The notes under the pieces are model-generated. The model searched no databases and was not told where the DNA came from. It saw nothing but the letters and a program-made list of their open reading frames with translations. 64,000 nucleotides of DNA from Octopus sinensis (taxonomy: Eukaryota). Location of the stretch: contig NC_043006.1 in the NCBI RefSeq assembly GCF_006345805.1, positions 21,948,001 through 22,012,000 on the forward strand, written 5' to 3'. This document shows positions 15,398 to 63,515 of this stretch, piece after piece; within the stretch, counting starts at the first letter, position 1, and the number at the start of each line of letters is the position of its first letter. A program made the translations under genes and the position numbers.

Positions 15398-15489
15398 GCC
15401 CGCATAGCTCAGTCGGTAGAGCATCAGACTTTTATAGGTCAACCTTAGAAGTAATCTGAGGGTCGCGGGTTCAAGTCCCTCTGCGGGCG
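15398..15489 (+). tRNA. tRNA-Lys-TTT: tRNA-Lys(UUU) with 19-nt intron (TAGGTCAACCTTAGAAGTA)
   Basis: GCCCGCATAGCTCAGTCGGTAGAGCATCAGACTTTTA|intron|ATCTGAGGGTCGCGGGTTCAAGTCCCTCTGCGGGCG; removing the intron gives a 73-nt cloverleaf; A/B boxes intact; T8 downstream. Confidence 0.95.
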
Positions 15490-15849
15490 TAAGGTAATTT
15501 TTTTAAATACCAGCCGACCATAGTTCTGAGATAAAAACGTCTTATAATATATATATATATATATATATATATATATATATATAAAACAAAACACTTTATT
15601 TTTACCAACTGATCATAGTTCTGAGATACAAATGTTTTGTTTTATATATATATGTTAGAAGTATTGGGGGTGATGTACAGATTTAATATATATGAAAGAA
15701 ACTACAGGAGTAGTTGAAGAAATATGTGATATGTAAATAAATATATATTTTTTACAACCATCCAGCATTCTGAACACATTTTTCTTTCATATATATATAA
15801 AACCAGACTTTTGTATCTCGGTCAGTTGGTATTAAAAAAAAAATCCATA

Positions 15850-15941
15850 CGCCCGCAGAGGGACTTGAACCCGCGACCCTCAGATTACTTCTAAGGCTGA
15901 CCTATAAAAGTCTGATGCTCTACCGACTGAGCTATGCGGGC
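15850..15941 (-). tRNA. tRNA-Lys-TTT: tRNA-Lys(UUU) with 19-nt intron (TAGGTCAGCCTTAGAAGTA)
   Basis: Intact exons, convergent with the 15398 copy, oligo-T terminator. Confidence 0.95.
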
Positions 15942-16226
15942 GGGCTGAAACTGAATGCTGAAATACCATTGCAGTAACGTATTTTTCAACTCAATCAGTC
16001 GAAGTTTTTCAACCTTCTATCATTACATACGTGAGATCCTACCATTATTCTCAATATTAAAAAGAAGAAACGAATTGCTTTGTGACTGAACGAGATAAGA
16101 ATCCTCATTGCAGTTAGATCTGGTGATATAATCTATAATAAAAGGCGTTCCAGCCACGATCCTCAGGTTTTCTTCGGTAGTATTTCGATTTATAATTACA
16201 AAATTTAAGTGGAAATCATGATAAAT

Positions 16227-16607
16227 CAGAGGTCCTCAACATGGGTGGTACCGCCCCCAAGGAGGCGCTGGGCGTGTCGAAAGGAGCGTTAGGCTTTAGG
16301 GGGCTGTGAGGTAACATAGTTAACGAACTAATTTTTACCTAAAGTAGTAATTATATTATACATGTTAAAACTAGTAATGGGTATTAAAATACAAATGAGA
16401 TCTCATCAGGCACTGGGAAGCCATTAACTTGTTAAGTATATAAAGTAAATTTACAACTTCTGTCTTTATTAATTTGTTACCATTTCATTGTTAAAACCTT
16501 ATACAATCCACTTTTAGAGTAAAATTGATAAATGATCATCCATCTTAAGTCTAGTCGAGGGGGCGTTACAAAAAAAGAAAAAGGAAAGAAAGTGTTAAAA
16601 ACCACTG
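16227..16607. mobile_element. hAT-like MITE (decayed)
   Basis: CAGAGGTCCTCAAC ... GTTAAAAACCACTG termini; TSD not recognisable. Confidence 0.45.
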
Positions 16608-16886
16608 TTGTCAGTTATCAGCAACTTTTTTTTTTAATCAAGATCGAACCTGCATTTCAATTATTGAAAACAAGGTAAGTCAAGGATATTTCTCGGTGTT
16701 AGAAAAAAAAAAAAGAAAAACCCAGTTAATACAATAAATAGAAATAAAGCGATCGGATGGTTATTCAACAACACTACGAGGGGAGACATTACTATCACTT
16801 CAAATTTCTCATCATGAAAAAAAAAAATACACCTGTTTTTGAAGTTTTGTTCTTTTATATGTAGTATTTCAGCTTATTTTCAGCCC

Positions 16887-16978
16887 GCCCGCATAGCTCA
16901 GTCGGTAGAGCATCAGACTTTTATAGGCAAACCTTAGAAGTAATCTGAGGGTCGCGGGTTCAAGTCCCTCTGTGGGCG
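16887..16978 (+). tRNA. tRNA-Lys-TTT: tRNA-Lys(UUU) with 19-nt intron (TAGGCAAACCTTAGAAGTA)
   Basis: Intact cloverleaf with G5-U68 wobble; T8 downstream. Confidence 0.93.
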
Positions 16979-18007
16979 AAAGGCAATTTTTTTTAATACC
17001 AACGGACCATAGTTCTGAGATACAAACGTCTTGTTTTTAAGCGATTTAAATCGAAACTTTCCGTCAAAATTTAATGTAAGGTTTATATTTTGAAACACCA
17101 AATTAATAATGACGAAGATATTTTTTTATTCAATTATTCATGATTCTCGAATTAATTGAAACAAAAGCAGTATTTATTAATAGAAATATAGTAAAGTGTG
17201 AGGTTTAAGTGAAACGTAGCTAAACGTTTATTTAAATCAGTCGACCAAAATAGAAGTTACCCTCTTGACACGTGTGTCAGAAATGTAGCCACCACTATCA
17301 TGTTTTTTCATTTACCGTTGGGTAAGCTAATCTAATTAATTGGAGTCATCAATCTTCTATTGCTTTTGTGTGGTCCCAAACACAGTCCTGATCTAACACG
17401 TGTAAGATGAGAGATATTGAAATAAAACACGGTGATACCGTCTTATTTTCATGAATGGTAGGTCGACTTTGCCTTTCATCGTTTCGGGGTCGATAAATTA
17501 AGTACTAGTTACGCACTGGGGTCAATAAAATCGACGTAATCCATTTGTCTGTCCTCTCTGTGTTTAGCCCCTTGTGGGTAGTAAAGAAATAGGTATACTC
17601 CAGCTATCATCATCTTCTATCTTATGTGTTGTTTTTAAGAGTGCAGAGTATAGTTTCATTGATATTTAGCTGCTATTTCTAAAAGTTGAAGCCACCACGT
17701 TGAGTTTCCCACGCTCGTCAACCCACGTCTTTCGTGCACTCACAGCAACAATTTCACTAAATTTTACTTTATTGAAATCTATACTTTAAAGTATTAATTA
17801 ACAGGAATAAAAAAAGAAAGTATTCATCTTCCTAAAAAATTATTACACGTCGTATCTAAATAAAAAACGAACGTTATATCGTGTATAAAATACTGCTGTC
17901 ATAAACTAGCCTGAAGTAATCAGCTGTCTCACTTACAACACATGTGAAACACAATCTAGACTTTCAGCTCTCGCTTTATACTCAATATATTGACCTAGAA
18001 GCATCCC

Positions 18008-18097
18008 GCCCGCATAGCTCAGTCGGTAGAGCATCAGACTTTTATGTTAACCTTAGAGGCAATCTGAGGGTCGCGGGTTCGAGTCCCTCTGCGGGCG
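18008..18097 (+). tRNA. tRNA-Lys-TTT: tRNA-Lys(UUU) with 17-nt intron (TGTTAACCTTAGAGGCA)
   Basis: Intact exons, divergent shorter intron, long T run downstream. Confidence 0.94.
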
Positions 18098-18277
18098 CAT
18101 GATTTTTTTTTTTTTCATTTTCTTGAATTAGTTTGTTTATTTGTTAGTTTTAGTATCGTCTCGAGTTTTACACCGAGTAGATAGATATGTTTTTCTGTTT
18201 TTTAAATTTTTTCTTAAAGTGTACGTGCATTGTCTCTGTTTCTGAAACGAGAGACTGTATTTGTTGCGTAACTTCGG

Positions 18278-61604: not shown

Positions 61605-61687
61605 CGCCACAGAGGGACTTGAACCCGCGACCCTCAGATCACTTAATGCTTAAAAGTCTGATGCTCTACCGACTGAGCTATGCGGGC
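61605..61687 (-). tRNA. tRNA-Lys-TTT: tRNA-Lys(UUU) with 11-nt intron (AGCATTAAGTG), damaged acceptor stem
   Basis: 5' exon perfect; 3' end TGTGGCG is one base short of TGCGGGCG (pseudogene or assembly error). Confidence 0.65.
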
Positions 61688-61886
61688 GGACACGGTTATC
61701 TATCATCATATAGTTTATAAATCAAGTTTGATAACCTAGTTTTATGTTGCCGTGTGAGAAAAATTGATTAAATTTTCTGTCGTAACTAGTCTTCATTTAT
61801 AAATATACATGTATGCTGGATCGTCGTTAGCCCCTACACGCAATTTTTTTCTCTTCTTGTTTCTCTCCTTGTTTCTTTTCTTTGTA

Positions 61887-61924
61887 TCTTTCTGTCGAAG
61901 AGCGTAGGCTCGAAACATAAAAGA
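61887..61924 (+). ncRNA. Hammerhead-like motif with CUGUNGA core variant
   Basis: TCTTT-CTGTCGA-A-GAGC-GTAG-GCTC-GAAA-CAT-A-AAAGA. Confidence 0.45.
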
Positions 61925-62277
61925 CTTGTTTTATTTCTATTCCTGAGCGCCATACTAATACATTGTTTGTACTCCACCTGCCTTCGTCTTTTGTTTATTT
62001 TCGTAAACCTTCCCGTTATATATATATGTGTGTGTGTGTGTGTGTGTGTGTGTGTGTGTGTGTGTGTGTGTGTGTGTGTGTGTCTGTCTGTCTGTCTGTC
62101 TGTATCAGTATGTGTGTATCACTAAAACTCGAGAATTACTTAACGGATTTCATTCAAATTTTACACATGCCTTACTTAGAGTCCATGCAAGTGTCATGGT
62201 CAAAAAAGATTATTTATGTATTTATGTATGTATGTATGTAAGTATATATGTATGTATGTATGTGTGTATGTGTGTGT

Positions 62278-62580
62278 GTGGAGATGCAATGGCCCAGTGG
62301 TTAGGGCAGCGGACTCGCGGTTGTAGGATCGTGGTTTCGATTCCCAGACAGGGCGTTGTGAGTGTTTATTGAGCGAAAACACCTAAAGCTCCACACGGCT
62401 CCGGCAGGGGGTGGTGGCGATCTCTACTGTACTCTTTCGCCACAACTTTCTCTCAGTCTTTCTTCTGTTGGCCTGCTCGCTTAGCCAGCAGGGTGGCGTC
62501 ATTTGAAGGCTAAAACAATGCGAAGCGCATTGTGACCAGCGATGTGTAGCAGCATCTGATAGCCTGATCGGTCATGGTGA
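62278..62580 (+). mobile_element. tRNA-derived SINE (family A)
   Basis: Colinear with 4084-4367. Confidence 0.8.
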
Positions 62581-62597
62581 TATATATATATATATAT

Positions 62598-63028
62598 ATT
62601 TTACTCTTTTACTTGTTTCAGTCATTTGACTGCGGTCAAGCTGGAGCACCGCCTTTAGTCGAGCAAATCGACCCCGGGACTTATTCTTTGTAAGCCCAGT
62701 ACTTATTCTATTGGTCTCTTTTGCCGAACCGCTAAGTTACGGGGAAGTAACACACCAGCATCGGTTGTCAAGCAATGCTAGGGGGGGGGCAACACAGACA
62801 CACAACACACACACACACATACATACATATATATATATATATATATATATATATATATATATATATATATACGACGGGCTTCTTTCAGTTTCCGTCTACC
62901 AAATCCACTCACAAGGCATAGATCGGCCCGGGGCTATAGCAGAAGACACTTGCCCAAGATGCCACGCAGTGGGACTGAACCCGGAACCATGTGGCTGGTT
63001 AACAGCTACTTACCACACAGCCACTCAT
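62598..63028 (-). mobile_element. SINE family B
   Basis: Near full-length match. Confidence 0.8.
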
Positions 63029-63422
63029 TTATATGTGTGATATATACATATAAAAATACAAACTGGGACAAGAAGGCAAAATATTTAGGTGACGATACAA
63101 AAAACACTATATGTATACGGATATGCCTTCCTATATACATGCAAAAACGTGTGCCTACAAGCATATGTTTGCACGCGCTCGTGTTTGTGCGCGCGCACTC
63201 GTATGTGTGTGTGTTCGTATGTTTTTTGAATGAAACGATTTGTTCTACAAAAAAACCCTTCAAGATGGTGCTCCAGCATGTCCGCAGTCAAATGACTGAA
63301 ACAAATAAAACAGTAAATTTATAAAAGATATACAGATTTCTTTTTTTTTTTTTTTAGTATACAAACACAATATAAAACATCTGATGAAACTATTCTTGTA
63401 AATTGTATAAAAGGAGAACCTG

Positions 63423-63515
63423 CGCCCGCACTGCAACTCGAGCCCGCGACCCTCAGATTTCTTACTGAACTGCTTCAAGAAAAGTCTGACGTTCTACTGA
63501 CTGAGTTACGCGGGT
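63423..63515 (-). pseudogene. Degenerate tRNA-Lys(UUU) with 20-nt intron
   Basis: Colinear with consensus but many substitutions in acceptor, D and T arms and A37C. Confidence 0.85.

Follow-up and report, generated by a model that had tools for sequence, protein, structure and literature searches.

The question raised by this locus is whether the short insertion carried between positions 37 and 38 by a cluster of tRNA-Lys(UUU) genes in Octopus sinensis is a working tRNA intron. The genes lie in the window, by which is meant the whole 64,000-nt stretch analysed (C10:21948001–22012000 of the 2.72-Gb assembly; the prefixes C and L denote contigs and loci). For metazoan tRNAs beyond Tyr-GUA, Ile-UAU, Leu-CAA and Arg-UCU, introns are described as essentially absent from GtRNAdb (PMC12530127, 2025). 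To judge from the sequence, a real, canonical tRNA intron is present in an isoacceptor for which none has been recognised in animals, and a probability of about 0.8 is given to the reading that the insertion is a working intron, predicted to be processed by TSEN and RtcB and likely to be common to other invertebrate lineages.

A scan of the window with both exons of one copy recovered 19 full-length tRNA-Lys(UUU) genes at 15398–63515. The insertion follows position 37 directly in 19/19 genes and measures 19 nt in fifteen of them and 17, 18, 11 and 20 nt in the others. The exons are those of a standard tRNA with an RNA polymerase III (Pol III) terminator: the Rfam tRNA model RF00005 (cut-off 29 bits) detected 18/19 genes at 44.6–60.3 bits, only the degenerate copy at 63423–63515 escaping, and the first run of at least four T begins 4–11 nt beyond position 73 in 19/19. 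ARAGORN and Rfam placed tRNA genes at the positions given by the first-pass annotation; the labels Stop, Ile and ??? returned by ARAGORN in the window are the same gene with the intron wrongly placed. No intronless Lys-UUU copy and no other tRNA gene was found within the window by ARAGORN, Rfam and the exon scans. The first-pass annotation is thereby borne out on the 19 copies in about 48 kb, on an insertion of 11–20 nt exactly at 37/38 and on a T run within about 15 nt of the 3' end; its remark that intronless copies and other tRNA types are missing holds for the window, and intronless copies do occur elsewhere in the genome.

The intron is not confined to the window. Genome-wide, an exact pattern for intron-bearing Lys-UUU genes gave 107 matches (reversed control: 0), and among the 100 of these that were listed, 46 lie at C6:34.5–35.0 Mb, 23 in the window cluster and 4 at C10:0.65–0.69 Mb, so that three clusters hold 73/100. 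Intron lengths of 11–20 nt in the window and up to 25 nt elsewhere fall inside the range of 6–133 nt published for eukaryotic tRNA introns (PMC4090602). The third intron base from the 3' end (position −3, opposite C32) is G in all 19 window genes and in 39/39 distinct clustered introns, with G making up 21% of the intron elsewhere; the intron sequences differ from cluster to cluster, yet this G is constant. Since C32 and the antepenultimate intron base form the anticodon–intron pair read by TSEN (PMC10275265), the invariant G has the signature of a TSEN substrate. A purine stands at −5 (opposite U34) in 38/39 distinct clustered introns. The earlier suggestion that an isotype absent from the animal lists has a canonical tRNA intron is upheld by the 37/38 position and by the G at −3 (19/19). 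None of the 13 Lys-CUU genes read at 11 fetched loci (of 40 matches) has an intron. Exons encoding a TSEN domain (PF01974) and an RtcB domain (PF01139) are present on chromosome-scale contigs at C4:22.10 Mb and C6:111.44 Mb, respectively. The intron appears family-wide in this genome and is very likely spliced.

Traces of that splicing were sought among intronless copies. Three junction patterns gave 19, 30 and 15 overlapping intronless matches, which were reduced by exclusions to 24 host loci. Dropped before the count at position 58 were L015 (no true gene), L066 (derived from Lys-CUU), one member of the L014 tandem pair, the source-like singles L084, L090 and L240, and one truncated L048 copy. 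The 24 loci are dispersed over the genome, and their exons join exactly at 37/38, which confirms the intron boundaries. Ten of them match the trailer of a specific intron-bearing gene in at least 10 of its first 11 nt (shuffled control: mean 1.0, maximum 4 in 300); L011 and L013 pair in this way with L090, L012 and L014 with L240, and L004 and L058 with L321, and several of the traced copies also share the leader and diagnostic exon bases of their source. A 15-nt direct repeat brackets L051, a copy of a mature tRNA that begins with G1, lacks the intron and carries CCA and then an A-rich tail. The distance from the 3' end to the start of a repeat is at most 35 nt in 15/24 intronless loci, in 27/40 dispersed intron-retaining copies and in 0/65 clustered genes; in the same numbers of dispersed copies (15/24 and 27/40) homology of transcript length is fused to retroelement sequence. 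The dispersed intronless loci look like retrocopies of spliced precursors, and the ten copies traced by their trailers make precise intron removal in vivo likely.

The two classes of dispersed copy differ at position 58. A58>T was found in 12/24 intronless loci, in 1/40 dispersed intron-retaining copies and in 0/65 clustered genes (Fisher p 8e-6), at equal background divergence of the two dispersed classes (3.5 vs 3.4 changes). The difference persists in traced copies only (7/10 intronless vs 0/13 intron-retaining, p 5e-4), after addition by hand of L064 and L091 (13/25 vs 2/41, p 2e-5) and after removal of eight intron-retaining copies that came from a best-score search (1/32 with A58>T, p 5e-5). 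Because 1-methyladenosine at position 58 (m1A58) is misread by reverse transcriptases (PMC8062790), the change may be read as an m1A58-like mark left by reverse transcription.

From these observations the following order of events would result. The clustered genes would be transcribed by Pol III; TSEN would cut the intron at 37/38 and RtcB would seal the exons. Splicing would take place in the nucleus with the 3' trailer still attached, because intronless dispersed copies retain gene-specific trailers. Methylation of A58 would come mostly after splicing, since A58>T occurs in intronless and rarely in intron-retaining copies, and it may precede removal of the trailer. The machinery of a retroelement without long terminal repeats (non-LTR) would then insert genomic copies of the spliced and of the unspliced precursor, in most cases joined to a repeat resembling a short interspersed element (SINE).

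Such fusions were also observed in their own right. Dozens of whole pre-tRNA copies are joined at the T run to a small number of SINE-like heads or tails (L001–L030, L236–L247, L271–L300), and the same type of fusion was seen for Lys-CUU (L066). At L029 (C1:69.35 Mb) fused copies stand head-to-head in an inverted structure that may reflect multiple template jumps. They resemble chimeric small-RNA/LINE-1 retropseudogenes, in which a Pol III transcript is fused 5' of retroelement sequence and for which, in humans, template switching or RtcB ligation has been proposed (PMC13174262). Most human tRNA/LINE-1 chimeras consist of antisense tRNA halves (PMC13174262), whereas those of the octopus are whole precursors with their trailer, spliced as well as unspliced, joined at the T run to short repeats.

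The breadth of the feature was assessed in metagenomes by one scan that asked for intron-bearing genes only and returned at least 126 stretches. These hold at least 116 distinct intron-bearing Lys-UUU genes, with G at −3 in 116/116 among the matches listed. At least 24 gene bodies (24/42 full-length among the matches listed) carry GCC(C/T)GG, which we take to be the animal-like type, and comprise at least 75 distinct introns at at least 97 loci. CDI exons flank L121 and L156 and thrombospondin (TSP1_ADAMTS) exons flank L150, in support of an animal origin, and neighbouring Lys-CUU, Asn, Gln, Glu and Gly genes at animal-type loci are intronless. Pfam, applied to 143/244 open frames near the metagenome genes, gave 5 matches in 4 loci, and a homolog search with the neighbouring CDI exon gave 9 metagenome proteins. 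Atlas matches for the metagenome loci were animal but mixed, that for CDI lying below 0.9. Rfam found only tRNA, U1, U3 and 5S in 40 metagenome loci, and the similarity of metagenome flanks to the octopus genome was limited to tRNA or microsatellite sequence. A search of sequencing runs returned 14 rows (8 studies; organism labels A–E, one possibly the source) with at least half of 12 words, which at most hints at the presence of the gene in relatives; no RNA run was among them, and RNA rows with a small share of the words were set aside. Taken together, the intron is likely to be common to other invertebrates, and the lineage-specific gain that had been proposed as one possibility is unlikely, as the intron is the norm of this genome (107 matches) and recurs in the animal-type metagenome bodies.

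Several further features of the metagenome loci were recorded. Intron-bearing Lys-UUU genes, with some Asn-GUU and Arg-UCU, stand in dense tRNA arrays at L122, L125, L129, L130, L153–L155, L157, L159, L166, L177 and L329–L332. At L119 an animal-type intron-bearing gene lies beside bacterial-type MraW and PRA-CH frames, probably on a chimeric contig. Apparent Asn-GUU introns at L140, L182, L184 and L197 were rejected as miscalled Tyr-GUA. Five unplaced contigs of the octopus assembly (C6094, C8481, C9068, C9082 and C12602; L072–L075, L079, L080, L250–L253) carry a divergent Lys-UUU gene that has no intron. These genes were dropped as likely contaminants: the contigs are free of host microsatellites and repeats, and one of them carries an actin gene split, as read by eye, by introns of about 25–28 nt. 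Introns of such small size are typical of dicyemids, parasites of cephalopod kidneys (PMC6543705), and the five contigs are likely to be dicyemid DNA; RtcB and TSEN matches on other unplaced contigs may have the same origin.

A number of observations weigh against a spliced and widely shared intron. Pairing at −4 (opposite U33) is possible in only 21/39 and at −6 (opposite U35) in only 20/39 clustered introns, and free folding of most precursors yields no clean bulge–helix–loop. Among 70 dispersed copies a target-site duplication is convincing in L051 only, the other candidates being tandem duplications or low-complexity sequence, and 14/24 intronless loci have no traceable intron-bearing source gene. 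T58 is present in two intron-retaining copies (L299 and, read by hand, L091). Some intron-bearing matches outside the octopus are giant-virus genes (of 4 matches in the viral collection, 2 come from giant-virus assemblies), and the metagenome figures carry no intronless denominator and are counted by gene body, not by phylum. Lastly, L010 (C14:50.69 Mb) is a solo intronless gene with 0 exon mismatches and a T4 terminator. Its flanks are unique, free of repeats for 175 nt and of any duplication, and 30 kb of sequence contain no second tRNA; a trailer of its type is found in five full-junction copies, all intronless, and also on the truncated retrocopy L318. L010 is probably a genuine gene, intronless and transcribed, one among some 75–90 intron-bearing ones.

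These points can be set against the explanations that compete with an intron. It is barely credible that a tRNA-derived SINE or other repeat has these copies as its heads and that the insertion is no intron: many dispersed copies are indeed joined to repeats in a repeat-rich genome, but the clustered genes lack not only a repeat within 35 nt but also any flanking duplication of at least 10 nt (0/65), homology ends at the T run, and precise intron-free counterparts exist. That the dispersed intronless copies descend from old intronless genes, with A58>T inherited from one master copy, would fit the existence of L010 as an intronless source-like gene and the fact that insertion-site duplications are mostly undetectable. 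The T58 copies, however, vary among themselves in trailer and exon haplotype, with six or more kinds of each; at the two remaining A positions of the 3' exon only 1/48 cells is changed; and copies derived from a single source disagree at position 58 (A in L011 and T in L013; A in L004 and T in L058), so that A58>T arose repeatedly. Descent from one master is improbable. The clustered genes might also be mostly silent or dispensable, working tRNA being supplied by a few intronless loci. L010, L001 and L016 do have intact exons, an internal promoter and a T run, all five full-junction copies that have the L010-type trailer lack the intron, and 9/19 window copies differ from the reference at sites other than position 57. 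Against such silence stand exons that are 98% identical between flanks of 46–53%, an A58 intact in 65/65 clustered genes, the G at −3 kept in 39/39 introns, and at least 23 dispersed copies that trace to intron-bearing genes and so require their germ-line transcription; this explanation, too, is quite improbable. A family that is mostly intron-bearing and likely spliced means that most AAA-reading tRNA would need splicing, and the apparently genuine intronless L010 means that the need is not absolute. The dependence of AAA decoding on splicing is therefore probably near-total and not total: of the earlier proposal that decoding depends on splicing, the large dependence stands, and a strict one does not, given L010 and a few intact intronless retrocopies.

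A different alternative accepts a real, spliced intron but has it gained independently in each lineage, and this is rather unlikely. Intron sequences are unrelated between the clusters of this genome and between metagenome bodies, recent gains are documented in yeasts (gains and losses alike; PMC4090602), and the likely dicyemid Lys-UUU gene is intronless. Moreover, 37/38 is the default intron position, so a shared position proves nothing about inheritance. On the other side, at least 24 animal-type bodies carry the intron beside other isotypes that do not, yeast Lys-UUU likewise has one (PMC6582322), and repeated gain in a single isotype would require a special cause. A more far-reaching proposal, somewhat short of even odds when its two parts are taken jointly, is that Lys-UUU would be a fifth, ancient family of animal tRNA introns, held in common with fungi but lost from those model vertebrates, insects and nematodes on which the census was built, and that the retrocopies would form a fossil record in which splicing comes before removal of the trailer and m1A58 after splicing, with reverse transcription driving an intron loss that is under way.

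Within the window the reference exons, G/A at position 57 aside, are matched in 10/19 genes, and the other nine carry further changes. The intact genes with a 19-nt intron lie at 15398–15489 (+; trailer shared with the intron-retaining retrocopies L047 and L236), 15850–15941 (−; trailer shared with the intronless copy L002, 11/11), 43074–43165 (+; the reference copy, trailer and intron shared with retrocopy L021) and, as Rfam matches, 21609–21700 (−), 25329–25420 (+), 27481–27572 (+), 40896–40987 (+), 51496–51587 (+) and, with a divergent intron, 49494–49585 (+); the intact gene at 18008–18097 (+; Rfam) has a 17-nt intron. Altered genes with a 19-nt intron are 16887–16978 (+; C68T; the intronless L003 has its trailer in 10/11 nt, the same leader and T68) and the Rfam matches 33903–33994 (+; A26G; trailer 10/11 to the intronless copy L017), 36592–36683 (+; A37G and G52T, probably impaired), 46661–46752 (+; C63T; trailer as in L025), 50555–50646 (+; divergent intron, four exon changes) and 54370–54461 (−; unrelated intron, T50/C64 variant). 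The gene at 59491–59581 (−; Rfam) has an 18-nt intron and G1A. Two copies look inactive, namely 61604–61687 (−; Rfam; 11-nt intron, 1-nt deletion in the acceptor stem) and the pseudogene at 63423–63515 (−; exon scan; 20-nt intron, 12 exon changes). Of the four partial copies first reported, exon scans gave three clearly, at 18288–18330 (+; intron end and 3' exon), 27317–27353 (−; degenerate 5' exon and intron start) and 42680–42733 (−; 5' exon and most of the intron), the fourth being a weak 18-nt fragment at 24394–24411 (−; intron end and 3' exon, E 0.016). All window copies share a C50–U64 (or U50–C64) mismatch in the T-stem; the same pyrimidine mismatch also occurs in 14/100 animal-type metagenome genes among the matches listed and is a possible lineage marker.

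The left end of the cluster lies inside the window (0 copies in the preceding 60 kb). To the right, 12 further copies follow in the next 36 kb, as far as about C10:22,047,900, and then none for 60 kb, so that the extent of about 48 kb reported initially was real but too small. The right half of the cluster consists of inverted and direct duplications of 1–6 kb with 92–97% identity; the local amplification inferred at first sight is thus seen as segmental and inverted duplication. Among 12 related window genes identity is 98% in exons, 93% in introns and 46–53% in flanks, which fits gene conversion or selection. A 6.4-kb inverted duplication (97%) reaches from 57737 to about 12 kb beyond the window end and includes the gene at 59491–59581 and a minisatellite at 58586–58771 (26-nt unit, 7.2 copies, 96% matches). 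A gap of 100 N (32975–33074) lies between near-duplicate stretches; in view of this gap and the 6.4-kb inverted duplication, some cluster copies may be assembly redundancy or allelic. Elsewhere in the window are an open frame of 364 codons for tandem C2H2 zinc fingers (5502–6596, −), a family whose expansion agrees with a cephalopod, probably octopod, host, and two fragments that resemble a non-LTR reverse transcriptase (13457–13915, +) and a Helitron Rep/helicase (23164–24081, +).

The closest known counterpart is tRNA-Lys(UUU) of S. cerevisiae, the same isoacceptor with a canonical intron, of which an intronless mutant is viable and shows a late slow-growth defect on respiratory media (PMC6582322). 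The octopus genes differ in their animal host, in the RtcB-type ligation to be expected there and in introns that vary between clusters. Splicing appears to precede trailer removal in the octopus, whereas in yeast end-processed precursors are exported and spliced in the cytoplasm (PMC10275265). The metazoan Tyr-GUA, Ile-UAU, Leu-CAA and Arg-UCU introns share the 37/38 position, the short length, the anticodon–intron pair and a near family-wide occurrence (PMC12530127, PMC12168002), but Lys-UUU stands outside that set (PMC12530127). No report of an intron in Lys-UUU of an animal came out of the literature search; these genes may well be present already in automated annotations. In PMC12168002 the axes place UUU 28th and 35th of 45 anticodons, Fig. 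S7 being legible as axis labels only, and the accessible part of PMC4536317 does not mention Lys. Aplysia is the sole mollusc in GtRNAdb (PMC10886601), and the gap in the census is likely due to such sampling.

The mechanism is ordinary; what is new is the distribution and the retrocopy record. An intron in Lys-UUU contradicts the 2025 statement on which animal tRNAs bear introns (PMC12530127). On the practical side, these genes receive the wrong label (Stop, Ile or undetermined) from default annotation. Spliced and unspliced retrocopies offer a rare, genome-only view of the order of tRNA processing, and other isotypes could be mined likewise for processing order and modification marks. They also suggest a concrete route of intron loss, a question that reviews leave open. 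In yeast tRNA-Tyr m1A58 requires the intron, whereas in octopus Lys-UUU the fossil mark indicates methylation mostly after splicing. We know of no intron-dependent modification of tRNA-Lys(UUU). Should the intron be old, something must have preserved it, and as conserved introns elsewhere are tied to intron-dependent modifications, tRNA-Lys(UUU) would be a testable candidate for one.

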